A stretch of 64,000 bases of DNA from Eledone cirrhosa (lineage: Eukaryota). How positions within the stretch are numbered: position 1 is the stretch's first letter; every line of letters starts with the position of its first letter. The position numbers were made by a program, and so were the translations under genes. The notes beneath the pieces are model-generated. The model had not been told where the DNA came from, ran no database searches, and saw nothing but the letters and a program-made list of their open reading frames with translations. This document shows, piece after piece, positions 3,692 to 60,113 of this stretch. The stretch lies in assembly GCA_964016885.1 (NCBI GenBank), contig OZ024753.1, positions 7,254,001 through 7,318,000 on the forward strand. Reading direction: 5' to 3'.

Positions 3692-6600
3692 TCACTTCAT
3701 CTTATATTCAGAAACTAACAATGCTAGAGACTGGCCAAGTAGTACTTTCGTGAAGGTATCCTTTCCCCACAGCCAGTAAGTTAACATTTCTCCAATGCCT
3801 TTTACTTTTATCATGCCTCTTGCTTCCATAGTATATCCCCCTAAATCTTCAAGTATCCTGGCTGTAACCTCACTCATATGAATTCGAAGATCATAACAAT
3901 TGGATTCCATCCTGGCAGCTGTGTTCACCGTATCTCCAAACAAACAATACCTAGGCATAAGTTTGCCTACCACGCCACCTACTACAGGGCCAGAATGTAT
4001 TCCACATCGTAACTGTAAAGTAGATTTTGGCATGTGCGGTATTTCAAACGTTGTCACCATAGACATCAAATCCAAAGCCATGGTTGCAATTTCTCCAACA
4101 TGGCGGTTCTCATTCTTCCCCGGGGAGACCACTGACCACCATATTCGAATCAGTTATAGTTTCCACTTTATAAACATCGTAATCATCGAGAATTCGATCG
4201 AAGGCATTATAAGTCTCATTCAACAATTCCACAATCTGTAATGCCTTACTGTCTTTGCATATATTAGAGAAATTGGCGATATCACTGAAAAATACTGTGA
4301 CGCAATCAAAATATTCCGGATCGGTTTTGTTTCCATTTTTTATTTCGTCTGCTACTTTCGCTGGAAGCATGTGACTAAGTAGCTGTTCTGCTCTAGCTTT
4401 GCTCATTTCAAGTTCTTGTGTTCGTTCGAAAACAACTAATTCTAAACTGTTAGAATACGTTTCCAACAGGCTAATCAAATTGTCTATAAGCTCACCTTTC
4501 CTAGGATATATGTTTTTAAGTCTTGTATAAATTTTATGGAAAACAGGCCTTGCTGAAGGTTTCACGTGCCAACAGTCCTCGATCAACTTCCGAAATGATG
4601 AATGCGTCTGAGGTTGTGGTGGAAAGAGGTCGTATTTTGTTATTGGTCTTGTATAGATCATTTCTTCTCCAATATCTTTCCAAACTCGTCGGGCCATCTT
4701 CTTTCTTTCATGTCTTATTAGACCCAATATTGAAGACGCTGTTAAAAATTGTAGTTCATACACATAAGGAAGTTCTCGTGTAATGATTTCGCATGCGACT
4801 ATCGCGTATGAATAAACATCTCCTAGCGGCGTCCCTCCTTTAACTTCATCTAAACATGACACGTTTAATAACAATTCTGGAGCTGTCTAAAAAAGTTCGT
4901 TTGAAACAGGCGTTGTTTCATCCGGGATTCTGTGCTCTCCAAATCGAATGTAATGTGCCCCAAATCCGCTCAGACGTACACACCAACGGATATCTACTGA
5001 ACAATTCGAAGATTTCAATCGGCCATGTGACTTAATTTGTGAGACGTCGTGTAGGAATTCATAAACATTATTCAATACGATTCCTTTGTAACGAACTACT
5101 ACTATTTGGTGCCAATTCCGCTGTTCCAAGGCCAGAAAAACCGTGTCTACAATACTGTTTTCACTCCAGCAGACTCTGTTGAAAAAGCGATATGTATCCC
5201 TGTTTGAAAACTCATTATCTGTGTTAACTGTTGAAATAAATGGCAAATGTGCTTTCAAAAGTAATGGGTTCATGGCTCTGGTGATCTCTGCTGGCAACGT
5301 ACTGATAATTAAACGTACCGTGTCATAACGCATGGAATTAATACCGGAAGTCATATTCATTAAGCTTTTATATGCAGTAGATCTTTTACGTCGACTGATT
5401 TCACATTTAACAATATCCCCTATCTTTTTAATAGGAAGCTTTTATGCCACTGTTGACGTGATTCGTAGCTAAACGAATGAATGAGTTCACGTGAGATTCA
5501 ACATTTTTCTACGTGCCACTGCCCTCAAGTTCCCCGAAGTGCACAATTGTTAAATTTCCTCGGACACTAAACACCGGAGTTGTATAGGAAGCATTTTCAT
5601 AACCTGTAGGGTGCACTGTTATTTGTACTTTTTCTGTTATCTTGCAGATTGCTATATGTATTAAAACAAATCCCTTATTTAAATTTGGAGAGCTTTCACG
5701 AATCATACAAACTCCAGCTGGTACAGATATAAAAGATAATTTCAATTTTGAATGTCTCCCAGAAAAGATACGACGTCCATCGAGATCTACTGCTTTCAGT
5801 GAAAATACCCCTGGTATAGAGAAACCTAATAATATAGGAATAGTTTTTGTTTTGGGATCTCTCAGCATATTCCACCTCTCCTCTACATTGCGCGCGGGCA
5901 CCAATCTCGCTAGCCGTTGTTCTCTGGATCGCATTCTGGATGTGAAAGTCGTAGGTAAGATGGAAATTCGTTCAAAAACAGAGGAAGGGGTGTACATTCT
6001 ATATTTTTTGTCACTGGAAACATGTCAAATTAAAATCCATACAGCAAGTTGGACAACGTGGAATTCTAGAATAAGGATCACGTGACATAGTCATTGTTAG
6101 ATTCAACCGAAACAGGTTAACAGACTCAAGAATTCGAATATTTGTAAAAACAACTTTACCCATCTCAGCCCGTTTCCGAACCAATCGGTCCCGGGTGTGA
6201 GATGTATCAAAGCGTCATCAGTGTCCAACGTAATTTCTGATTCAGCTAAAATATTTTCTCTTTCTCTGTTGGCGTAAAATTTCTTATAAGCGTAGGGTAC
6301 TGTTAATATAACATATGCTACCGAATCAAGGCCTTCCGTTACAGGATGGTCATAAATATCACGAATTTCGGCTTCAAAATGGAAGTTACGGTTTGCTATA
6401 ACAGAACAAGGTGGCTGTTTCGTAATGGTCAAGTGATGTGCAGGAGTTGTTATACGGATGGGATAAGTATCTAGTTTTATCTTATACACCAGTATCTCAA
6501 TTCTTAATATTCGATTGTTGGGCGGTAATGTTGAATGCTGATGGTAAATCTAGTCAATGATAATTTCTTGGTCAATCACTTCAACGTTCAGTTGAATTTT

Positions 6601-6976
6601 AGAGTGCTACTGCATAATCTCTGTTTAATCGCTCTGGATAGTTAAGCCACCATGCTGATTTCTGACACAACATACCTCCATTTTCTGCCCAAGTGTCCGA
6701 TACACTTTTGTTTTTGAGTTTTTTAATATCTAATAATGTCACGCGTGCTGTTATATTCCTTGAGTTCGGCTTAGGATCTGTTCCGTTCACATATTTCAAA
6801 TATACAATTATTGGTTTGCTAATAGTTTGATTCAATAGAACAGAGTAATAGAGCTGACGTGGATCGGAAGGAATGTTTTTTGGAAGCCTATAATTTTCTT
6901 TAAATGTTAGCATGTACATACCGTAATGAGAAGGACAGATACCTAATAGGATAAAAATAAACCGCAGAGGTGTCAT
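3692..6976 (-). pseudogene. Decayed intronless paralogue of the receptor guanylyl cyclase
   Basis: ORF pieces 6599-6976, 6103-6489, 5509-5997, 4887-5360, 4110-4874 and 3692-4132 are collinear with the intact gene (WAENGGMLCQKSAWWLNYPER, HLTITKQPP, SHGRLKSSNC, MPRYCLFGDTVNTAARM). They are broken by several stops and frameshifts and by a large internal deletion at 5060/5061. Confidence 0.9.
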
Positions 6977-7027
6977 CCTTCTACACTGTTATTTTCGAAG
7001 TATTGTAAGTTTATATCGTGAATAAAA

Positions 7028-7346
7028 CCTATCCTGGAAACGACATCCCACCTTGTCTAAAATCTATGGCAAACTCCCTCGAGCCTCTGCCCTTCTAAAA
7101 TCCCGGAGAGCTCAATTTGCTGGCCACTGTCACCGTGCCAGCAATGAAATCATATCCGCTCTCTTGCTCTGGAACCCTGACTCCAGCCTGACTAGGAGTA
7201 GGAAGCTGTCATTCCCTGACGTTATCTCTAGGGATACGGGAATCAGTAGACAGGACCTGGGGGCAGCGATGGGGGACAGGGAATTCTGGGGCATGAGAGT
7301 GAGATCCATCATCTCGACAGTAGTCGACGAGTGATAATGATGATGA
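7028..7346 (+). mobile_element. RTE-clade LINE 3' fragment (family 2)
   Basis: RRAQFAGHCHRA...LLLWNP motif and (TGA)n tail. Inserted about 50 bp upstream of the pseudogene ATG. Confidence 0.8.
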
Positions 7347-7769
7347 TATCGTGAATATATTTTCATTTCGGTGTTTAGAAATGGCCTGTCTATGGTAAAT
7401 ACTCTCAAGCGAACATTTCCAAGCACTGGCTGCATCAATCTGAGCAGAAAGAACGAAAGAAATAGTCACATCTCTCATTTTATTCTTTGCGTGGATATAG
7501 ATATGTGGTTGCGTTTGTGCGTGTATGTTTCTGTATATGTCTTTGTGTGAGGTGTGTGTGTGTGTGTGTATGTTCCTGCGTGTGTGTTTTTGTCTGTGTG
7601 TTTGCGTTTGTGCGTGTGTTTGTTTGTGCATATGTGTCTTTGTGTGCGTACATATCTGTGTGTATATGTGTCTACGTTTGTGTGTGTGTGTGAGCGCGCG
7701 CGCGTTTTTTTAAATTGATGTAGCATGTCGGAATTGTTAAAATATGCGTTTCGCAAACATTAGGTCCCT

Positions 7770-8211
7770 GGTGTAATGCCACAGTGTGGCATGTTGGGTA
7801 AGAGGGATTTACCGCAGCCGTGTTTCCCCGGTGTAATTCCACAGTGTGCCATGTTGGGTAAGAGTGATTTACCACAGCCTTGTTTCCCCGGTGTAATACC
7901 ACAGTGTGCCATGTTGGGTAAGAGGGATTTACCACAGCCTTGTTTCCTGGTGTAATACCACAGTGTGCCATGTTGGGTAAGAGGGATTTACCACAGCCGT
8001 GTTTCCCCGGTGTAATTCCACAGTGTGCCATGTTGGGTAAGAGTGATTTACCACAGCCTTGTTTACCCGGTGTAATACCACAGTGTGCCATGTTGGGTAA
8101 GAGGGATTTACCACAGCCTTGTTTCCTGGTGTAATACCACAGTGTGCCATGTTGGGTAAGAGGGATTTACCACAGCCCTGGTTTCCTGGTGTAATGTCAC
8201 AATGTGCCATA
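7770..8211. repeat. 59-60 bp minisatellite, about 7.5 copies
   Basis: Unit GGTGTAATACCACAGTGTGCCATGTTGGGTAAGAGGGATTTACCACAGCCTTGTTTCCCC. Confidence 0.95.
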
Positions 8212-8214
8212 TCA

Positions 8215-9220
8215 TCCCCTTCCATCATCTACTGTCTTGCTCCGGGAAAATCTATCTAAAGCGAGGTTCTGCCAGTCTTCTCCGATATTTTCATCTTTTT
8301 CAGTGTGCTTTTAATACAATCCCTATGCTTCAACTTTGGTTTGTGCGGTGGTCATTTACCTTCGACCAGCTTATCATACAGGAACTGCCTTGGGTTACGA
8401 TCCTCATCCATTCTCAGTACATGACCACACCATCTTAATCAATGTTGAAATATGAAAGACTCTATACCGGTACATCGACTATATTCGAGGAGTCCAGTGT
8501 CACTCAAGTACATTTTCCAGTGGATGCCCTGTACACGTTGAAGACACTGTTGCTGAAAGTGTTCCAGCCTTTTGGGGTGTCTTTGGTAAGTGACCCAAGT
8601 TTCAGATGCATACAACAAAGAGGAGAAAACACAAGCATTATAAACTTTCAACTTTGCCTCATGCTTTCCAGATGCATCACTTACCTTCTTGATTCGGAAG
8701 GAGATTTCTTCATCCAGAGTATTTGTCATATTCACAGTGTTGCCAAGATGCATAAACATATGACCAGAGACACTTATGTTTGGTGTAGAGTAAGTTTTGC
8801 CTGGTGCAGATTGGTACAACATCATAGACATTTTCAGACTGATTGTTAGGCTCAATGCACCGCATGCTTTCGAAAAAGATTCATGAGATGTTGCATGTCA
8901 CTCTCAGAATGAGCGACAACATCTCAGTCGTCAGCTTACAGGAGTTCATGTATCAGCGATGAAAATATTTCGTTCTGACATCAAACCTTCTTATATTGAA
9001 CATGTTACCTGTTGTTCGATATTTAATGTAGACCCCGTGTGAGCAAGCTTCAAAAGCCATCAGGAAAACCATAGCAAAGACCAACGCAAACAGAGTCGGT
9101 GCCCAAATATCTCATTGCTTAACACCATTTTCAACCACAATAGGATCATGGGAGGTTACCACTCATTTTAACAGTTAACTTCATTCCAGCATGGAAACCT
9201 CTCATCACAGAGTACAATCT
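8215..9220 (-). mobile_element. Degenerate RTE/BovB-like LINE RT fragment
   Basis: GVKQ..APTLF, LL*ADD, LTISLK and KLKVYNACVFSSLLYASETW motifs, interrupted by stops. Confidence 0.75.
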
Positions 9221-12487: not shown

Positions 12488-15400
12488 ATGGCTGTTGCAT
12501 GTTTCTTTTTTATATCTACGTTGATGCTTGTGACTGGACAAAACATATCATTACAATTTCAACAGGATTACCATCCTCCAATGACACCGTCTGCTGATGC
12601 TAAAGAATGGAATTATTCAGTACCACTCAACCAAATCATATTCAGGCCTATAATTGTGTTAATTGTTTCAAACCATACACTTGTTACAAACGGGGATGTG
12701 TTAAATTCGATGGCGACAGTAAACTCTTTACCTCATCCGCCATCTAATAACGACAGTTGGGCAGAGAGTGGCGGGGAATTATGTCAGAACTCTGCTTGGT
12801 GGCTGGAATATCCGGAGCGCTACAACAGACAACAAGCCAAGGTTCGCTGCGTATCACCTCAATCGCCTTCTCTTATGAAATCACCAATTTTTAAAGGAAA
12901 GATTATAATCGATAGGATTTACCATACGCATACCTTAGTGCCTCCAACCAAACGAATTCTAAGGATCAGCATACCGGATTATGAAATATCAATTGATACC
13001 AATCCTTTCAGTGTTACAAAGCCTGCGAACCATTTAGCAATAACGAAACAGCCACCGCTAAGTGTTTTAGCTAATCACGATTTTGATGTTGAGGTGGAAA
13101 TCAGAGGCGATGATGATAAACTTCTTCGAGATGGTATTGATTCTGTTGCATATGTTCAAATGTCAATTCCTTATAATTATAAATTATTTTATGCGGACCG
13201 AGAACGGGAAATGTTACTTGCTTCAAGTGAAATTCGTCTGCAAGGAGAGAATGTAATTACTGATTTCAAAACTCAAGATATGATATTTCGTCAAAGAGCA
13301 ACAAATGGTCAGGTAAATTTTACCGGTGTTCGTATTTTAGATATTGTAGATGATTTACAGTTAAATATTACGTTAACCATGGGAAAACCTCCATGGGAAA
13401 GAATTCCTGCTTGTCTAGAATGCTTCACTGACATAGAACTTGCAAGACGGCTTGTAAATAACAGCAAGTTTATTACATTCAAGCGACTAACACCGGAAGA
13501 AGAAGAAAAGATTCTACCGATTAGTTTCACGAGGAATTTTACTGTTATAGCTCAAACTGTGGCTAAACTTGTAGAAACCAAAAAAGTACAACGGATGTTT
13601 GTTCTTTCGACGAATAATGAAACCGGTCTAATCGATGCTTCTATTGCTCATCCTATAATAAATGGTATTTGTATTGATGCATTAGATTCGTCAGACCGTC
13701 ACATCTATTCAGGCCCAAATTCAAAGATGTCTTTAACTGTAGAAACAGATCCAACGGATATACCATTTCTAATTGATAAATCGACGAATATGATCGAAGG
13801 ACATAGTAGTGTGTTTGTATCAATAGGTGTATTAACCGACTCTGTCAGATTGAAAATATATTCTAAAAGGTACAATGTTTCTTATTTAAGTCCCGCCTTT
13901 CGTATAATAGGGAACATCACAATTGGACATTTTGGTCGCATTCAAGGCAATGCCCCTGAAAGTGGTATGGACTCACATATCAATACTTTCATCCGATTCG
14001 CCATAAACGATGTTAACAATGGCCTTATTGTCCCGAAGTTAAGTAAGAAAGGAATACATTTGAATTTGCGAACGGTTAACATTCCACTAGAACAATACCC
14101 AACCAACATAAAGCTTAGAGGTGGGATACATAATTCCTCTAATATTCGTTTTGCTATAATTTCAGTTCCTGATACTATATCCAAGTCTTTAGCGAAGCAT
14201 AATATTCCATTTATTAGAACAGGTACTTCCACAGAATTATCCAATAGTCATTTAAACCCCCATCATAATACGATATCTTGGTCAGATGAAACAATATGGG
14301 ATTCGGCGTTTCAGGCTATCAAAGAAAGACTTTGGACTGATATTCTCATAATTAAATATGAAGATATTAATTTACCTGACATATTCTATTCTATGGCTGC
14401 CAAATACAACATTAGCATACGTTATCGTTTTACTATTAAACAGCTAAAATATGTAAGCCCTAGGTATATTAATGATGGACTATTGCTGCACAGAATGAGG
14501 CAGATTAGTGAAACTAAACTTAAAATATTCTTTCTATTTGTGCCAGCCCACATACAGCCTATCGTCCTTCGAGAAGCCTATCTCGCGGGCCTTTCTTCCT
14601 TGAATGGATTCCAATGGATTTTATTCGGAAAGTATGCAAACGCGTTTCCTTTTGAAAACCAGTCTGTTTGCCGTCGTAAAATGGAATGTACATTAGCATT
14701 TTCTGGAACGTACCTTTATGTTCCGACCTACAATGTATCAGGTTACCAAACAGAAAATTGGAAACGAGTCCTAAATTATTACTTTAAAGAAGACCGTGCA
14801 CTTCACAGAGGTGTAAATATTGCTTATCATCCATTTGAAGAAGGCGCACTAATGGGATTGGGTTATGATGCTGTGCACCTTTATGCGAAAGCTCTCTTGA
14901 CACTAATTGAGAAAAATCAGATAATGAAATCTCAATTATTTACTTTGATTTTGCGTGAAATTACTATAGATGGACTAACCGGTAAAATACATTTAGATCA
15001 CTATGGAAACAGGATTGGCTTTTTCAGCTACCTAGCCCAAATTAACCCAATGCCACGTTGGCCTCATATGCCGAAACAAAATGTTTTAACGTTTGTTAAG
15101 TGTATAATGAGGATGGAAGATGGTATCCAATTAGAAATTCCTTACCAGACAAGAATGGTTTCACGCAATAATTCTATGGCAGCTTTATTTTCCACCGAAG
15201 GGCAGATATATAACACTAGACGATACATATCTTTCTCGGGAATGGTTGGACTCAATACACAAATGATGATGCCAGTAGAGGAGGAACCATGGCCACCGCG
15301 CATTATAATCCGGAAAGAATCTGTACTCGCACCTTACGCATGTAATTTTAAATGTGGTGACAAATTAAAAGATCCTAATAATGTTAATGTTTTTGATCGA

Positions 15401-17506
15401 GGCGAATGTATGCCAAATGGTAAATGCAAATGTTTTGATGGATATTTTGGAAAATCCTGTAAGAACGCCATGTGCCAATGCAAATATGGTGTATGCTTTA
15501 ACCGCACTTACTGCATTTGTCATAAAGGCTATAGTGGAAGTATATGCGGAAAGCCATTTTGTGCCTTTTGTAAACATGGTGTATGTGTAGCATATAATGT
15601 GTGTAAATGCAACAGTGTTTTTTATATTGGTAAATTTTGTGACGCTCACATTTTTAGCATCTTTGTGCCATTGATTTTGGGAATTATTCTTATGATTGGT
15701 TTGTCATATTTCTTCATATCAATAAAAGAACGAGAGTACAATACAGAAGCCAAACAAGAATGGCTGGTTGATTGGAACTCAGTGGACCAACATGTAACGA
15801 CAGTTGTGATCGGGCACAAAGGAGGAACTAGCAAAAAGGTTGCAATTTATGAATGGAAAGAACAGAACTGGTATATTAAGAGAATACCTAACAGGACAAT
15901 CCCTCCAGATGATAAAAAGGTTATTTCAGAAATGCTACAGTTAACAAAATCAAGGCATTATAACCTCATCCAATATGGAGGGTGTTGTTTGACATACCCT
16001 AATGTCAGCTTATTTTTGGAAGTTGCTGATAAAGGTAGTATTACAGATATTCTTGCTAATGAAACTTTTGAGATAGGATGGGAGTTTGGATTTTCATTTT
16101 TAAAGGATATATGTTCTGGCATGGAATTTTTGCACGACAAATCCGAAATAAAATCTCATGGACGTCTAAAATCTTCAAATTGCTTGGTTGACAAGCGCTG
16201 GACTGTACGCCTCTCAGGATTTGGTGCACCGACTATTCGCTACGGCAACTACAGAATTAGAGACAATCAAGAATTGCCTTCATTAATAGAACTCTTTTGG
16301 ACTGCACCCGAACTACTGGGGGATAATACAACTCTAGATGGCATCAAATCTGGTACACCGCAAGGAGATGTTTATTCATTTTCTATCATCGCCTGTGAAA
16401 TAGCCACAAAAGCAAGTCCATACAGTTATGAATTACAATATTTAAATGAAAAATCTATTTTAAACCTCGTCAGAAATACATCAAATCCGGCAAATAAACA
16501 TATACGTCGTGTATGGGAGAATATTGGTGGTGCTAAAATGATTTTTGCGAGACCTATTTTGAAGGAACATCTATTACCACACAGTAAACTTTCCAGAAAA
16601 CTGTTTAAAAAAATGCTTGAAGAATCTTGGAATGAAAAAGCAACATCAAGACCGACTTTCAGTAAACTTGGTTTCATTCTGAATCAAATGCACCCCATTA
16701 AAGGAGAACTTATTGATAAATTAATCCACCTATTAGAAACTTACTCTAATAATTTGGAAGTGATAGTAGTAGAAAGGACCAAAGAATTAGAATTGAATAA
16801 AGCTAAAGCGGAGCAATTACTGAGCCAGATGTTACCAGTAAAAGTAGCCAATGAGTTAAAGCAGGGTGGTAAAGTAATGCCTGAATTATTCGAATGTGCT
16901 ACAGTATTTTTCAGTGATATCGTGAATTTTGGCCGAATATGTAGAGAAAGTAAACCAATGGAAATAGTTGATTTTTTAAATGAGATTTATAATGAATTTG
17001 ATGCAGTCTTAGATGATTATGATGTTTATAAAGTAGAATCAATCTGTGATTCTTACATGGTTGTAAGCGGTATACCCGAGAAAAATGAAGATCGTCATGC
17101 TGGAGAAATTGCGACCATGGCTTTAGATATGATGTCACATGTTACTGGGCTCGAAATTTCTCACATGAGAAGTAAAGCACTCCAATTACGTATCGGAATG
17201 CATTCTGGCCCGGTAGTAAGTGGAGTGGTGGGGAAGCTAATGCCTAGATATTGTCTTTTCGGAGACACCGTGAACACTGCCTCTAGGATGCAATCTAGTT
17301 CTTACGCCTTACGTATTCAAGTGAGCGAGAACACTGCAGCACTTCTCGTAGCTTTAGGTGGATATAAATTAGAATGTAGAGGTAAAAGAGATGTGAAGGG
17401 GCGTGGCATTATGACAACGTACTGGTTGTGGGGTAAGGACACATTTGCAAAGGAACTTCCAGATCTATCACTCGCAGTGCCTCTTACAGAACACAAGTTC
17501 AAATAA
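12488..17506 (+). CDS. Single-exon receptor (transmembrane) guanylyl cyclase with Ig-like, ANF-receptor/PBP1 and EGF-like ectodomain
   Basis: 1672-aa uninterrupted ORF. Signal peptide MAVACFFFISTLMLVTG. ANF-receptor-like motifs (FAINDVN, YDAVHLYAKAL, GLTGKIHLDHYGNR). Three EGF-like Cys repeats (aa ~974-1051). TM helix IFSIFVPLILGIILMIGLSYFFISI. Kinase-homology domain (HGRLKSSNC, WTAPE, GDVYSF). Dimerisation helix (YSNNLE..V.ERT). Cyclase motifs FSDIV, KVE..D, MPRYCLFGDTVNTASRM. Confidence 0.95.
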   Translation: MAVACFFFISTLMLVTGQNISLQFQQDYHPPMTPSADAKEWNYSVPLNQIIFRPIIVLIVSNHTLVTNGDVLNSMATVNSLPHPPSNNDSWAESGGELCQNSAWWLEYPERYNRQQAKVRCVSPQSPSLMKSPIFKGKIIIDRIYHTHTLVPPTKRILRISIPDYEISIDTNPFSVTKPANHLAITKQPPLSVLANHDFDVEVEIRGDDDKLLRDGIDSVAYVQMSIPYNYKLFYADREREMLLASSEIRLQGENVITDFKTQDMIFRQRATNGQVNFTGVRILDIVDDLQLNITLTMGKPPWERIPACLECFTDIELARRLVNNSKFITFKRLTPEEEEKILPISFTRNFTVIAQTVAKLVETKKVQRMFVLSTNNETGLIDASIAHPIINGICIDALDSSDRHIYSGPNSKMSLTVETDPTDIPFLIDKSTNMIEGHSSVFVSIGVLTDSVRLKIYSKRYNVSYLSPAFRIIGNITIGHFGRIQGNAPESGMDSHINTFIRFAINDVNNGLIVPKLSKKGIHLNLRTVNIPLEQYPTNIKLRGGIHNSSNIRFAIISVPDTISKSLAKHNIPFIRTGTSTELSNSHLNPHHNTISWSDETIWDSAFQAIKERLWTDILIIKYEDINLPDIFYSMAAKYNISIRYRFTIKQLKYVSPRYINDGLLLHRMRQISETKLKIFFLFVPAHIQPIVLREAYLAGLSSLNGFQWILFGKYANAFPFENQSVCRRKMECTLAFSGTYLYVPTYNVSGYQTENWKRVLNYYFKEDRALHRGVNIAYHPFEEGALMGLGYDAVHLYAKALLTLIEKNQIMKSQLFTLILREITIDGLTGKIHLDHYGNRIGFFSYLAQINPMPRWPHMPKQNVLTFVKCIMRMEDGIQLEIPYQTRMVSRNNSMAALFSTEGQIYNTRRYISFSGMVGLNTQMMMPVEEEPWPPRIIIRKESVLAPYACNFKCGDKLKDPNNVNVFDRGECMPNGKCKCFDGYFGKSCKNAMCQCKYGVCFNRTYCICHKGYSGSICGKPFCAFCKHGVCVAYNVCKCNSVFYIGKFCDAHIFSIFVPLILGIILMIGLSYFFISIKEREYNTEAKQEWLVDWNSVDQHVTTVVIGHKGGTSKKVAIYEWKEQNWYIKRIPNRTIPPDDKKVISEMLQLTKSRHYNLIQYGGCCLTYPNVSLFLEVADKGSITDILANETFEIGWEFGFSFLKDICSGMEFLHDKSEIKSHGRLKSSNCLVDKRWTVRLSGFGAPTIRYGNYRIRDNQELPSLIELFWTAPELLGDNTTLDGIKSGTPQGDVYSFSIIACEIATKASPYSYELQYLNEKSILNLVRNTSNPANKHIRRVWENIGGAKMIFARPILKEHLLPHSKLSRKLFKKMLEESWNEKATSRPTFSKLGFILNQMHPIKGELIDKLIHLLETYSNNLEVIVVERTKELELNKAKAEQLLSQMLPVKVANELKQGGKVMPELFECATVFFSDIVNFGRICRESKPMEIVDFLNEIYNEFDAVLDDYDVYKVESICDSYMVVSGIPEKNEDRHAGEIATMALDMMSHVTGLEISHMRSKALQLRIGMHSGPVVSGVVGKLMPRYCLFGDTVNTASRMQSSSYALRIQVSENTAALLVALGGYKLECRGKRDVKGRGIMTTYWLWGKDTFAKELPDLSLAVPLTEHKFK

Positions 17507-39620: not shown

Positions 39621-40101
39621 TGATAACAGTTGGGATCTATGTGGGTTGGCTGAAATGTTCATAGGCTGAAAAAATTCAGCGGTTGATCAAGATACTCTCA
39701 TGGAATGACCACGAGGTTTATTTTTCAACATAGTCCCTAGGAAGCACAACGCAGTTATTAATAGGAAGAGTTGAAATTAATATAGGGGTGGGTGACAGCA
39801 ACACCTCTCTATTCACCTTCACCTTCCTTTTCAAGTTAGATTTGAAAATGTCGAAGAAGGCTTCGCTTTACGAAAACAGCCCGTCCTTCCCAACCAAAAG
39901 AAGGTGATGGAGAGATCTGCAAGATGGAATCCGTCAACAGTTGGAACCTTCCTACTAGTGATAACAGTTGTTAGACATAACACCACAAGGAAACATTGCA
40001 CGGACACTGAACGAGAGTGTGCAGAAGGGTTTTATTGCTGAGCGCACTTTCTCGAACATATCTGTTGGACAGCCCTTCCGCATCTGTAGAGTTTGTCTCG
40101 A

Positions 40102-41944
40102 ACAAGTTGCCAGAGTATATGGCCACAAGTTGCCAGAGTAGATGGCCACAAGTTGCCAGAGTAGATGGCCACAAGTTGCCAGAGTATATGGCCACAAGTT
40201 GCCAGAGTATATGGCCACAAGTTGCCAGAGTATATGGCCACGAGTTGCCAGAGTATATGGCCACGAGTTGCCAGAGTAGATGGCCACATGTTGCCAGAGT
40301 AGATGGCCACATGTTGCCAGAGTAGATGGCCACAAGTTGCCAGAGTATATGGCCACAAGTTGCCAGAGTAGATGGCCACATGTTGCCAGAGTAGATGGCC
40401 ACATGTTGCCAGAGTAGATGGCCACAAGTTGCCAGAGTAGATGGCTACAAGTTGCCAGAGTAGATGGCCACAAGTTGCCAGAGTAGATGGCCACATGTTG
40501 CCAGTGTAGATGGCCACAAGTTGCCAGAGTAGATGGCCACAAGTTGCCAGAGTAGATGGCCACAAGTTGTCAGAGTAGATGGCCACAAGTTGCCAGAGTA
40601 GATGGCCACAAGTTGCCAGAGTAGATGGCCACAAGTTGCCAGAGTAGATGGCCACAAGTTGCCAGAGTAGATGGCCACAAGTTGCCAGAGTAGATGGCCA
40701 CAAGTTGCCAGAGTAGATGGCCACAAGTTGCCAGAGTAGATGGCCACAAGTTGCCAGGGTATATGGCCACGAGTTGCCAGAGTAGATGGCCACAAGTTGC
40801 CAGAGTAGATGGCTACAAGTTGCCAGAGTAGATGGCCACAAGTTGCCAGAGTAGATGGCCACATGTTGCCAGAGTAGATGGCCACAAGTTGCCAGAGTAT
40901 ATGGCCACAAGTTGCCAGAGTAGATGGCTACAAGTTGCCAGAGTAGATGGCCACAAGTTGCCAGAGTAGATGGCCACATGTTGCCAGGGTATATGGCCAC
41001 AAGTTGCCAGAGTAGATGGCTACAAGTTGCCAGAGTAGATGGCCACAAGTTGCCAGAGTAGATGGCCACATGTTGCCAGAGTAGATGGCCACAAGTTGCC
41101 AGAGTAGATGGCCACAAGTTGTCAGAGTAGATGGCCACAAGTTGCCAGAGTAGATGGCCACAAGTTGCCAGAGTAGATGGCCACAAGTTGCCAGAGTAGA
41201 TGGCCACAAGTTGCCAGAGTAGATGGCCACAAGTTGCCAGAGTAGATGGCTACAAGTTGCCAGAGTAGATGGCCACAAGTTGCCAGAGTAGATGGCCACA
41301 AGTTGCCAGAGTAGATGGCCACAAGTTGCCAGAGTAGATGGCCACAAGTTGCCAGAGTAGATGGCCACAAGTTGCCAGAGTAGATGGCCACAAGTTGCCA
41401 GAGTAGATGGCCACAAGTTGCCAGGGTATATGGCCACGAGTTGCCAGAGTAGATGGCCACAAGTTGCCAGAGTAGATGGCTACAAGTTGCCAGAGTAGAT
41501 GGCCACAAGTTGCCAGAGTAGATGGCCACATGTTGCCAGAGTAGATGGCCACAAGTTGCCAGAGTAGATGGCCACAAGTTGCCAGAGTAGATGGCCACAA
41601 GTTGCCAGAGTAGATGGCTACAAGTTGCCAGAGTAGATGGCCACAAGTTGCCAGAGTAGATGGCCACATGTTGCCAGAGTAGATGGCCACAAGTTGCTAG
41701 AGTAGATGGCCACAAGTTGCCAGAGTAGATGGCCACATGTTGCCAGAGTAGATGGCCACAAGTTGCCAGAGTAGATGGCCACAAGTTGCCAGAGTAGATG
41801 GCCACAAGTTGTCAGAGTAGATGGCCACAAGTTGCCAGAGTAGATGGCCACAAGTTGCCAGAGTAGATGGCCACAAGTTGCCAGAGTAGATGGCCACAAG
41901 TTGCTAGAGTAGATGGCCACAAGTTGCCAGAGTAGATGGCCACT
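40102..41944. repeat. 23-bp minisatellite, about 80 copies
   Basis: Unit AAGTTGCCAGAGTAGATGGCCAC, highly homogeneous, with no spacers. Confidence 0.97.
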
Positions 41945-42422: not shown

Positions 42423-43050
42423 AGGGCGGGTAAAATTCCCGAGATCCATGGACGAGTTCTCTCCAGCGGTCTCTGTCCCTCATTATCGCTGCCATGTCCT
42501 GCGTCTCCAACAGACCAGTGTCTGTCCTTAGGGCATCAACATACGTTAACCTTGGTCTTCCTCTTCCAGTGTGTCCATGTAGGGGCTCCCACAGGAGCAC
42601 TGAGTGCAATGTCAACTCTGGATGTCGGTGAGCATGTCCAGCTAACCTCAGTCTCCTCTGTGTCACTTTTGAGGTGACTTTTGGGATGCTCCCATACAGC
42701 TCTGAGTTTTTCATCCTCAGTGTATACTGATTAATGTTCAGAGCCATCTTCGGCATTCTCGTGTAGCACCCATCCACCATCTGAGTGGGTTTCTTGGTCA
42801 GTGTCCAAGTCTCAGACCCATACAGCAGCACAGACTCCACTACATCAATGAAGAGGCGGATTTTCAGGTCTTCACGATGGTCCGACTTCCACACCGATCT
42901 CAATCTGTGGCTTTGCTCTTCCTCTCAACCACATCAACTTCCGTATTCCCAATCTTTGCTCCAAAATACAGGAAGTGCTCAACCAATTCTAGCGGCTTCC
43001 CGCCTACATTAGTGATCCCCTTTGGCTTCTCAACATTCTCTACCAGATAT
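42421..43050 (-). mobile_element. RTE-clade LINE 3' fragment (family 1)
   Basis: LLYGSETWTLT...LRLAGHAHRH...GRPRLTYVD. Ends CCGCCCTAG followed by (TA)n. Confidence 0.85.
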
Positions 43051-46100: not shown

Positions 46101-47145
46101 TAGGGCGGTGGATTGGCAGTATCGGTAGAAGGTCGGACGCCATGATTTACTGCACAGAATTACGTCCCTTTACGGACTGAGTTCAAATCCCGCCGAGGTT
46201 AACTTTATCTTATCGACTCCGTAAGGATAAAAGGCAAAGTACCAGTAATGTACTGGGATAATTGCTGGCCTTGTGCCAAAAGTAGAAACAATTATTATTA
46301 TTATCATTGTAAAACCCCAATGTCCGTGAATTTGTACTGTCCCCTACATGTCGGACCTTGTGGCCAATAAATGAAATCATTATGTCAAACATTGATACCA
46401 CTAGAAAGAGAGAGAGAGATAGAGAGAGTGTATGTGTGTGTGGGAGAGAGGGTGTGAAGGAGAGAGTCAGAGAGAGAGAGAGAGAGATATAAGACAACAT
46501 AGAGAGAGGAAGAAGTTGTCAACATGTCAACAAGACACCATTCTAGCGAAGGAAAATATAAATATTTCGAAAAAATAAAAAAAAAAGAGAAACAATATCG
46601 TTATTAATTGTTTCTACTTTTGGCACAAGGCCAGCAATTACCCCAGTGTATTACTGGTATTTTATTTTATCGACCCTGTAAGGATGAAAGGCAAAGCTAA
46701 CCTCGGCGGGATTTGAACTCAGAATCGTTATTAATGATATTGTTTCAGTCTTAAAACAGTGAAATGGTTGACACAAGCAACACCAACAATAACAACAACA
46801 GCACTATTAATAACAACAACAACGAAAAAAGCAGCGATAAAGTTGAGAAAGACAATCTCAAAGACAATGACAACAATAACCACAACAACAATAACCAGAA
46901 CAACAATAACCACAACAATAGTATCAATGAAAACAACAATAATGATTTCTACTAAAGACACAAGGCTAGTAATTTTGGGGGAGGGGAAGTCGATTAAATC
47001 GACCCCAGTGCGTGACTGGTACTTTATTTTATCGATCCCAAAGTTAACTTCGACGGGATTTGAATTCAAATCATATAAAGGGCCGTAAATCTATGCTGCA
47101 AAGCATGGCGTCCGACTCTACCGATACTGCCAATCCATCGGCCCT
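46101..47145. mobile_element. SINE family 1 copies (46101-46300 +; 46605-46725 -; 46942-47145 -)
   Basis: Consensus match. Confidence 0.8.
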
Positions 47146-47179
47146 AACGAAAACAACAACAATAACAACAAAATCCACA

Positions 47180-48400
47180 CTGAACAATAGGACCCAGAAA
47201 ATTTCTTTCACCTGTGCTATCAAGTCATCGTTTAGAAAACTAAACTTTGCTGAGGATGAATTATAAAAAGCAAGGAGTCTTGTTGAAAGCAATGGCCATA
47301 TCGTCAGTCTCAAGACTCTTATGGAAATGATCCAACATACGGTACATCGAACTGTGACATACCATATTATTGGATTAAAAAGTAAAAAATTGAAAGAGCC
47401 ACAGAAGCTCAAATCCAAAAGTCTTTGGTGACAGTTTGGACCCAAAATATTTATATTCAAAGAGCTAGAAATTTCGGCACGGTGGAGGTGAGATTTAATA
47501 CAGAAGAAGAGGCAAAATCTCACTCCCTCAAGCCCCTACAAAGTGAGGAAATTCTGCTAATCCCATTCTACTGTGGAATGAGATTGGTAAAAATCAAATT
47601 AAACAATATACCACCGGAAATAGATATTTCTTGGCTATTGGCCGCCGTAACGGAAAACATTAAGGAGAACACAAAAATCCTTGATGTTTACCAAATAAGC
47701 AAGGACAATTGTCAGGGGTGGCAGTGGAAATTTTACTGCAAACCACTCAAAAAAGTGTAGTGCCATCCCTGAACATCTACACCTTTCAGGCGGTATGATA
47801 TTACCCATAGAAGTTGAAGGGAGAAAAGCTAGATGTCATATCTGCCTTTCCACAAAACACCTGAGAGCATTATGCCCTTCTCTAAAACCAAACATAAAGA
47901 AACCTCCGCTCCTACCAACACCAAAAACCACAACAACAACAACTAAAATTAGAAGACAAACAGCAAATGAAACAACACCAACACCAGTAGCAGCAGCACC
48001 AGCACCGCCAAGTCCAACAAAGAAAAAGATGACACCAACAACATCAACAGCACCAACACCCATTGAAGACATTCCAATCCCTGGCGATACACATGACACG
48101 TGGCAAATAGTAAGTGCTCCCAAATAAACAAATAAATAAAAGGGTGAATTCTCCGTCTTCGCCCTCAGAAAAAGAAGGCGAAAGAGCAAAAAAAAAAATC
48201 CAAAAAGCCGAAAGGCAACATCCCCCAAAACCACATCCCCATCACCAATACCACCACCACAAACACCCACACAGCCAACATTACAACAATCACCACACAC
48301 ACAAACAACATCTCAAGCAAAACCTAACCCGCACCCAGAACAACAAAAAAGATACAAACATGAGGCACTACACAGCAATTGACTCAAACAATACAAAACT
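47180..48400 (+). mobile_element. L1/Tx1-like ORF1 remnant
   Basis: RRM-like segment followed by a CCHC knuckle (CHICLSTKHLRALC) and a T/P-rich tail. Frameshifted. Confidence 0.6.
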
Positions 48401-48481
48401 TTTACATTACTGACAACACAACACCACAATCACACCAACGATTTTACAAAACCAGGAAAAATAGCATTACCCCAAAACATA

Positions 48482-48690
48482 CTTCCGTCAAATAGGACCG
48501 AGGAAACCAAGTTTCCATTGGTCTTTCCAATTTATAATACCATCTATCGATCGCAACTCCAGGTAGAAGGAGCAACGTGAAATAAAGTGTCTTGCTCAAG
48601 GACATAACGCATTGCCCGGTCCAGGAATCGCACTCACAACCTCACAATTGTGAACCCAATCCTCTAACCTCTCAGCCACGCGCCTTCACT
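48482..48690 (-). mobile_element. CORE-type SINE (family 2)
   Basis: Similar to 10785-10987. Confidence 0.75.
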
Positions 48691-48870
48691 GAATATACAC
48701 ACACATTTAAAAACCAAATTCCCAGATTCGATTGGAGACTTCAGGGGAACAATCTCCAAACGAATCTACAGACATTTCGGCTTTTGAGCCAACCCCAACT
48801 AAAAAAAAAAATGGAATTACTATCCTTCCCCCCCAAATTCTAAGGTAACTGGCCTCACTCAAAATCAATC

Positions 48871-49990
48871 ATGGCCTCACTTAAAATAGGCAGTATGAAT
48901 GCATGGGGAATGGGGTCGTCCTGGAAACAGGGGCACTTGCTCAATGACCTCAGGTCACTAGACATAGATGTGGTGGCCATTAGCGAGACCAGAGTTTCCG
49001 AGGCACGAACCTCCGCATCCATTTTCGGTGGCTACGAGGTGTTTGCATCTCCAAGCCGTCCAGAATCTGGAGGCGGTGTTCCCGTGTTGTTCCGGGCCCT
49101 GAGGGTAAATTGGTGGTGCTGGACCTGACCAGCGGCAAAGGGCATGCCTTCAGGTTAGTGGCTGTCTATGCTCCAACAAGGACAGGACGAACTGATTTCT
49201 TCCGACGTCTGGAAACCTTTCTGGGGACGTCTCGCTCTTTAGTCTTATTATTAAAAGATCTGGTCTGGGATCTGTATGGACGTCCTTCTTCCCACCAAGC
49301 AGCTGGAATGTCGTCAAGCACTCACAGCCCTCTACCAATTCGTCACTGTGATCGCTGAAAAATCCACTTTGATGATCCATAAAGGATTAATGACGGGAAA
49401 AAGTGGCGACTTTCTTTTAGAGATTATGGGTGTCAAATGCGATCAACTAGCTACTCCTTTCTGGAGAGCTTTTATCCCGGGGCCAAATGATAACTACCAG
49501 AAATTCCTGACCTTGCATGCTACGGAGTTTCATAACCGGTTTGAGATAAACTCGAGAGATTCGGAAGTTCCGCCAGCCGAACTTGTCAGAGATGTGCTCA
49601 GGTCAACGAAACCGTCCCGTAAGATCTCATCCAGTGCTCAAGCATTGTTGACATGTGGATTTATGTAGAACAGCTGTTCTCGAATGTGGGACGGATCCTG
49701 CTACCAGTTGAGTTCACCTTGAAAATCACCCCGCCGTCATCCATTAGCCGAGAAGGGCAGGAAGATTCTATCTGCCATGCTTCCATGGCTAAAAATTGTT
49801 GAATGGTGGGCGTGACTGAAAGGCCTGAAGACACTTTCCTTTCAGGTTAATCCTTCGTTAAATTTTTCAGGTTTCATTTGATGCAGAATGTCAGGTAGAG
49901 AAGGAAGTACTGGATAGAGAGGTACGGACATGTCAGGTAGAGAGGGACGGACATGGTCCGAGTGAACTCGCCTGCTCTGAGGACTGGGGC
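48871..49990 (+). mobile_element. L1/Tx1-like ORF2 remnant (APE endonuclease plus an internally deleted C-terminus)
   Basis: SLKIGSMNAWG, DVVAISET, GGGV and FRLVAVYAP endonuclease motifs. The distal part resembles 53780-54100. Confidence 0.7.
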
Positions 49991-59280: not shown

Positions 59281-59689
59281 ACAACAGCCACCCAACTGAG
59301 CTGGGATTGAATTTGCTCTTGTTGCTGATGTGGTTGTTATTGTTGTATGTGTGTACTTTTATATCCATATAGTTTTAGTTAAATACACAGTTTATGCTGA
59401 ACTTTCATCCCAGATGGATTGCCAGAAGACGGTTATTTTGTTTTGAGTGTATGTTTCGTCTATTTCGTTTATTTAAAAAATATTTTAAGATCTATCAGAC
59501 ATTAACTTTGAAGGTAAGAATATATAATCTTTCTTATTTGTCTAAATATATATATAGAGAGAGAAATTGCCTCGAAACCACTAGGTGTATCTGAGGAACT
59601 TGCGAATCCAGAGTCAGGTTCGATCCACAAACAGATCGCACTTCGAGCTGTTCGCCGGAGAAACAATTGTAATACGTAATAAATATATT

Positions 59690-60113
59690 GCTGTAGAGGC
59701 GCCTGTGCTGCTGTACGGGTCTGAGACTTGGACACTGACCAAGAAACTCACTCAGATGGTGGATGGGTGCTACACGAGAATGCTGAGGATGGCTCTGAAC
59801 ATTAATCAGTATACACTGAGGATGAAAAACTCAGAGCTGTATGGGAGCCTCCCAAAAGTCAGCTCAAAAGTGACGCAGAGGAGACTGAGGTTAGCTGGAC
59901 ATGCTCACCGACATCCAGAGTTGACATCGCACTCAGTGCTCCAGTGGGAGCCCCTGCATGGACACACTGGAAGAGGAAGACCAAGGTTAACGTATGTTGA
60001 TGCCCTAAGGACAGACAATGGTCTGTTGGAGACGCAGGACATGGCAGCGATAATGAGGGACAGAGACCACTGGAGAGAACTCGTCCATGGATCTCGGAAA
60101 TTTTACCCGCCCT

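Follow-up and report, generated by a model that had tools for sequence, protein, structure and literature searches.

Octopod receptor guanylyl cyclases with an Ig-like, Venus flytrap and EGF ectodomain and a possible active site shared between two subunits

The window analysed here, 64,000 nucleotides on contig C13 of the 3.0-Gb Eledone cirrhosa genome (OZ024753.1, positions 7,254,001 to 7,318,000), holds an intact gene for a receptor guanylyl cyclase within repeat-rich DNA, hereafter type A (Table 1). We regard the gene as intronless because an O. vulgaris model can be aligned with it over its full length (1,669 columns, 61% identity); unlike it, the other receptor cyclases of the Eledone genome were matched exon by exon. 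The nearest named relatives of its product are octopod proteins (47–61% identity). The domain order is signal peptide, three beta-sandwich domains, Venus flytrap domain, three EGF repeats, one membrane helix (the only one by hydropathy, starting at about aa 1055), kinase-homology domain and cyclase, with Pfam placing ANF_receptor at aa 563–843, EGF at 964–1053, kinase at 1112–1394 and cyclase at 1466–1647. This is the layout of a receptor guanylyl cyclase, the signal peptide being called by hydropathy only, and the protein belongs to that class, with cGMP synthesis predicted. Elsewhere in the window, short frames that we take to be LINE retrotransposon fragments lie at 420–815, 7026–7331, 8442–8897, 42424–42924, 47074–49665 and 59585–60112, with another at L007:8837-9442 outside it, and minisatellite arrays at 39958–41800 and 7675–8166 give repetitive open frames.

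Table 1. Features of the type-A gene and its neighbouring paralogue, in window coordinates.
Feature	Position	Strand	Evidence
Intronless receptor guanylyl cyclase gene, type A, 1672 aa	12488..17506	+	ORF, Pfam, alignment to O. vulgaris model
Likely signal peptide, aa 1-17, cleavage site inferred	12488..12538	+	Hydropathy; similar start in O. bimaculoides P0005
Ig-like domain 1, aa 19-179, C99-C121 loop differing between types A and B	12542..13024	+	Model; STAT 1uus Z 8.1, rmsd 2.9 over 107
Ig-like domain 2, aa 180-356, two inserts, one holding CxxC 309/312	13025..13555	+	p65 6ggr Z 9.2, rmsd 3.2 over 110
Ig-like domain 3, aa 357-475	13556..13912	+	SbsC 4uid Z 8.5, rmsd 2.6 over 93
Venus flytrap domain, ~aa 476-951, low-confidence insert near end	13913..15340	+	Pfam ANF_receptor E 1.4e-14; structure matches
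Three short EGF-like repeats, aa 952-1053	15341..15646	+	Pfam; sequence likeness; Cys pattern
Membrane helix, ~aa 1055-1077	15650..15718	+	Hydropathy 2.63
Kinase-homology domain, HGRLKSSN, without catalytic Asp	15821..16669	+	Pfam; alignment
Guanylyl cyclase domain	16883..17428	+	Pfam; alignment; catalytic positions
Type-A paralogue, pseudogene	3692..6976	-	Head to head with intact gene

Genome searches, whose counts are lower bounds, found at least one intact type-A gene, at least one broken type-A gene and at least one gene of a second type, B, in Eledone. The paralogue that the initial annotation had invoked does exist in the window, but its pseudogene status had been missed: its matched segments carry five frame changes and two stops, and about 580 codons (the rest of the flytrap domain, the EGF repeats and the membrane helix) are gone. 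Short-read contigs from three runs of one sample agree with the pseudogene except for the base at 4122, which is absent in 2 of the 3 runs. An assembly error as the source of the broken copy was mostly rejected on these contigs, the sample being perhaps the assembly's own. The type-B paralogue is intact and intronless, and lies on a different contig, C2 (G000:C2, L007:2363-7429, minus strand); its 1,688-aa product is 37% identical to type A. Both types also occur in O. vulgaris and Argonauta, where A is multi-copy on one contig each and B was found once. The O. vulgaris models P0001, P0002 and P0009 (1,866–2,485 aa) fuse adjoining type-A genes, a sign of a type-A tandem array on one contig.

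Three beta-rich, Ig-like units had been proposed ahead of the flytrap domain, and AlphaFold2 and fold searches agreed on them at the proposed boundaries. The model of the N-terminal ~460 aa, built on an alignment of eight sequences, consists of nearly nothing but strands (pLDDT 77.7, pTM 0.68); that of the whole ectodomain scored 61.9 and 0.47. Structure searches cut the N-terminal model into aa 19–179, 178–357 and 355–475, so that the predicted fold is indeed one of three separate sandwich ranges, and each range of this predicted model matched Ig-like sandwiches (Z 7–9, rmsd 2.4–3.2 over ~95–110 residues) from STAT, Rel/velvet, GH2 stalk domains, SbsC and filamin. Further matches were BbgIII 7nit for domain 2 (Z 8.7, rmsd 2.5 over 99) and GH2 6qub for domain 3 (Z 9.2, rmsd 2.4 over 95), and FdeC covered all three units (Z 9.9, rmsd 13.3). 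Each unit is thus predicted to be an all-beta sandwich of the Big_1/filamin type, and since Z scores of 7–10 stand barely above those of unrelated beta proteins, the models fix the fold class, not the family or function. The last residues of the unit-ending motifs TNPFSV, TRNFTV and SPAFRI lie at aa 176, 353 and 473 as claimed, on their own a weak signal, and the quoted stretches of unit 2 were located at aa 182 (HLAITKQPP) and 271 (ATNGQVNFTGVRI).

Antibody-type Ig domains carry a core disulphide between strands B and F, whose cysteines lie ~55–75 residues apart. In our alignment the V/C/I-set core disulphide is absent, the conserved Cys pairs lying 22, 3 and 21 residues apart. The pair at aa 426/447 of Ig-like domain 3 (~13763 and 13826) is kept in 9 of 10 proteins and lost at both positions in the window gene, and this joint loss supports a disulphide there. 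The WAExGGxLCQxSAWWLxYPER insert, described by the initial annotation as conserved in the paralogue, is present there, but it is specific to type A, type B having a different loop after LCQ.

That the units are repeats of one another was only partly upheld. Unit-versus-unit likeness was not significant on eight sequences; on 27 rows (without P0007, one of the eight original rows), units 2 and 3 reached an HH probability of 92.6 (score 44 versus 15 for the best of 25 column shuffles) and units 1 and 3 reached 47.9 (30 versus 17), whereas units 1 and 2 gave only 2.4 (20 versus 15, best of 25 shuffles). The likeness of unit 2 to bacterial Ig-like repeats was supported. A profile of 20 repeats of a JGI protein, P0010, scored all eight family members at 11–22 bits, against 6.2 for the best of 1,600 shuffles, and its match fell on unit 2 (81 columns, probability 91.7); units 1 and 3 were barely above shuffles. 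Ig-like domain 2 is accordingly a relative of the ~104-aa unit repeated in tandem in large unnamed proteins: of the 150 best-scoring rows in the full profile search, 128 belonged to multi-repeat proteins that align with the beginning of unit 2. One of ten such proteins looked up names an organism, Bdellovibrionales, and gene transfer from bacteria is not claimed. Atlas leads from the N-terminal units to Big_1/filamin/SMCHD1-type Ig-like repeats scored 0.79–0.88, all below 0.9. The units thus resemble such repeats of FdeC, intimin, SbsC, GH2 stalks and P0010 in predicted fold and in the profile of unit 2, and differ from them in their long family-specific inserts and in having no Pfam match: Pfam gave none on aa 18–475 (eight members searched, with a copy that may predate Ig_SMCHD1). 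A PDB sequence search with the same residues likewise found nothing.

The flytrap domain and the three EGF repeats that had been read ahead of the membrane helix were borne out by Pfam, by structure matches and by 18 cysteines at aa 952–1051, which are the same in all 10 aligned proteins and form three six-Cys repeats. By sequence the EGF repeats are nearest to WIF1 and HHIP. The flytrap model (aa 474–951) matched GABA-B 7c7s (Z 24.5), NPR-C 1yk0 (23.1) and NPR1 (22.6), which are effectively tied. With GC-A/NPR1 (PDB 9bcl, 9bcv) and GC-C (8fx4), the window protein shares a flytrap domain (Z 22–23 against NPR1/NPR-C), one membrane helix, kinase-homology domain, coiled coil and cyclase, and these two give the best matches of its cyclase (E 4e-68 and 3e-65). 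Unlike them, it adds three Ig-like and three EGF domains: the ectodomain, put at ~1,050 aa by the initial annotation, came to about 1,040 aa with six domains besides the flytrap, and is not the flytrap-only ectodomain of the NPR type. A chloride motif, S(x)nGPxC, is given as an NPR-type flytrap feature in PMC5225109; GPxC was found in the flytrap of 0 of 14 proteins, four matches lying in the EGF repeats instead. Judged by sequence, the window protein is a receptor guanylyl cyclase but not of the NPR type.

The initial annotation had proposed a new ligand or adhesion-coupled cGMP signalling. An adhesion- or contact-coupled cyclase, in which the Ig arm rather than the flytrap is the main sensor of a cell surface or matrix, would accord with the likeness of the three Ig-like domains to stalk domains of intimin, FdeC, S-layer proteins and filamin, and with their conservation between types, Ig domains 1–2 (33–39% between A and B) being at least as conserved as the flytrap (24%). 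The closest folds, however, are mostly structural stalks or transcription-factor domains, a lectin or adhesion tip was not found, and the flytrap is whole; we consider this reading improbable.

Besides the 128 repeat proteins, the best 150 profile rows contained 22 family members. Twenty new family members were looked up, of which four were named. An octopod-only family, suggested by word-index searches, was overturned by this profile search, which found bivalve and centipede members. The taxonomic range, a matter raised by the initial annotation and pursued here with the N-terminal region, extends beyond octopods in molluscs and to a centipede: the freshwater mussel Sinanodonta has Ig-like domains 2–3, flytrap, EGF, and kinase in a partial model, the bivalve Tegillarca an Ig2–3 fragment, the snail Gigantopelta an Ig1–2 fragment, and the centipede Strigamia (T1JDE2) the whole layout. 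Six ENA/Logan records (P0035, P0047, P0061, P0064, P0122 and P0155) form a distant subfamily of Ig1–2 fragments, apparently exon pieces. Database models of O. vulgaris, Argonauta, O. bimaculoides and Strigamia T1JDE2 named 'speract receptor-like', 'ANP receptor 1-like', 'gcy-4-like' or 'guanylate cyclase' share the family and layout; the names were assigned automatically on the cyclase part alone and leave the 460 N-terminal aa without annotation, and among these models are several fused or partial ones.

The A and B clades separated with support of 100/100. In a tree on 206 intracellular columns, octopod A, octopod B and Strigamia grouped together (98.8/99), apart from three ordinary receptor cyclases found in the Eledone genome; P0001, P0020 and P0005 were left out because that region is missing from them. 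With catalytic columns masked, the best tree put the centipede outside A plus B (82/84); in the AU test, grouping the centipede with B was retained (p 0.23) and grouping it with A was rejected (p 0.014). From this one arthropod, the Ig–flytrap–EGF layout is probably as old as protostomes. Its persistence bears on a further possibility, that the ectodomain serves only targeting or assembly while the dimer relays signals from other receptors. The ectodomain of ODR-1 is reported to be dispensable (PMC5225109), and the flytrap is weakly conserved (24% between A and B). A ~1,050-aa ectodomain with the same domain order from octopods to a centipede nevertheless counts against a mere targeting part, and we judge such a relay highly improbable.

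The cyclase domains of the two types differ in their active sites. According to three papers (PMC2576301, PMC6005667, PMC3591389), each site of a class III cyclase is assembled from two subunits: one contributes two Asp, an Arg and the phosphate loop that follows the first of these Asp, and the other contributes Glu, Cys, Asn, Arg and Lys. In the window cyclase all eight catalytic positions are present, the Glu/Cys pair for GTP and six others (D1477, E1517, D1521, R1568, C1589, N1596, R1600 and K1637), and the glycines of two motifs are altered: GFT reads NFG and IGD reads ICD. Type A as a whole (6/6) keeps C, N, R and K and reads N/D-F-G/S/C/A in place of GFT and I[S/C]D in place of IGD; at the GFT position AC5 has ANFS in its C2 half, resembling type A. 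Type B (4/4) keeps D, E, D and R, its GFT and IGD motifs are intact, and C, N, R and K are lost. The other cyclase exons of the Eledone genome are canonical (GFT 5/5, IGD 4/4, C/N/R 5/6, the sixth being of the soluble-alpha type). The four B and six A sequences are close kin, so that each pattern counts as one event, not as ten. For an obligate heterodimer one would look for a partner without N, R and K but with both Asp, which all four type-B proteins are, and for another subunit without metal-binding Asp, which type A is not, as it keeps both and only flanking loop residues differ.

That the metal- and phosphate-binding half is canonical in B, where C, N, R and K are lost, and that its loop is altered in A, points to an A/B heterodimer. 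We therefore favour, with odds slightly better than even (roughly 0.52), a reading in which the window gene encodes the A subunit of such a dimer and B would contribute, to a single shared site, the half that binds metal and phosphate. By class III cyclase chemistry, B would be inactive alone and the A/B pair would hold one complete and one dead site. Against this stands a rather unlikely alternative in which A is an ordinary active homodimer and B a catalytically dead decoy, scaffold or inhibitor. A has lost none of the eight catalytic side chains and may thus be active as a homodimer, and dead-looking relatives exist: P0013, an A-derived ENA record of 1,678 aa whose cyclase is altered on both halves, is probably a pseudo-enzyme, and the Strigamia model P0027 looks damaged on both halves, its E/D exon being absent from the model. 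These two mean that catalytic loss need not imply partnership, and the location of A and B on separate contigs likewise tells against a pair. A pure decoy, however, has no clear need of the metal- and phosphate-binding half, which in B is canonical and highly conserved while that of A is altered in every sequence; cyclase-domain identity is 87–98% within type B versus 77–83% within type A.

Known cyclases offer partial parallels for the heterodimer. C. elegans ODR-1/DAF-11, called the first obligate heterodimer, has each cyclase giving part of one catalytic site, as set out in PMC5225109; the passages on this pair mention no Ig or EGF domains, and the heterodimer is demonstrated there and predicted here. 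Mammalian receptor cyclases, unlike the dimer predicted for the window family, are homodimers with full sites according to the same paper. B has the alpha/C1 pattern and A carries the beta/C2 set, a division known from soluble guanylyl cyclase (alpha/beta) and adenylyl cyclase (C1/C2); unlike in those, A also retains the two Asp and the Arg that belong to the alpha side, and the protein is a membrane receptor with no haem domain.

In the receptor guanylyl cyclase family, a ligand signal passes via the membrane helices and a kinase-homology brake, as described in PMC5225109 and PMC1435932. On that pattern, A and B would pair through the coiled coil and the ectodomain. A ligand bound by the two flytraps would make the membrane helices rotate via the EGF stalk and lift the kinase-homology inhibition, so that the single A/B site closes and cGMP rises. 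The Ig arm, furthest from the membrane, might help to capture a large partner, protein or surface-bound, which is the weakest part of this scheme; the type-specific loop of Ig-like domain 1 could tune specificity, and a multi-copy A combined with a single-copy B might vary it. More broadly, and only tentatively, a protostome-old Ig3–flytrap–EGF3 family may have become an obligate heterodimer in cephalopods, with one conserved B and a tandemly multiplied, variable A forming a cGMP receptor of combinatorial make-up that responds to protein or surface-bound cues and whose outer arm is a bacterial-type Ig repeat.

The initial annotation had suspected an undescribed architecture, and no description of the layout was found in the literature searched, a scope that excluded subscription journals, bioRxiv supplements, InterPro and CDART. 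The part available of a coral sperm cyclase paper (PMC6787079) concerns a 1,049-aa protein and has no mention of EGF or molluscs; by term search, the family is not mentioned in the text and supplement of an O. sinensis gonad paper (PMC11202624), and the supplements of a study of O. maya testis (PMC6341066) do not mention it either. A sperm role, resting only on automatic names, was not adopted.

Receptor guanylyl cyclases are usually described as flytrap-only receptors, nearly all of them homodimers. In the present family the ectodomain is far larger, is conserved across molluscs and in an arthropod and includes an unannotated Ig-like domain, and the family would be a second, sequence-predicted case of split active sites in receptor cyclases. 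A search for ligands calls for expressing A together with B, not A alone, and both genes are single-exon. Two further loci of the Eledone genome, G000:C28:9925974-9926609 (L018) and C28:9763045-9763485 (L020), hold adenylyl-cyclase-like frames of 531 and 515 aa and are perhaps intron-poor cyclase genes as well.
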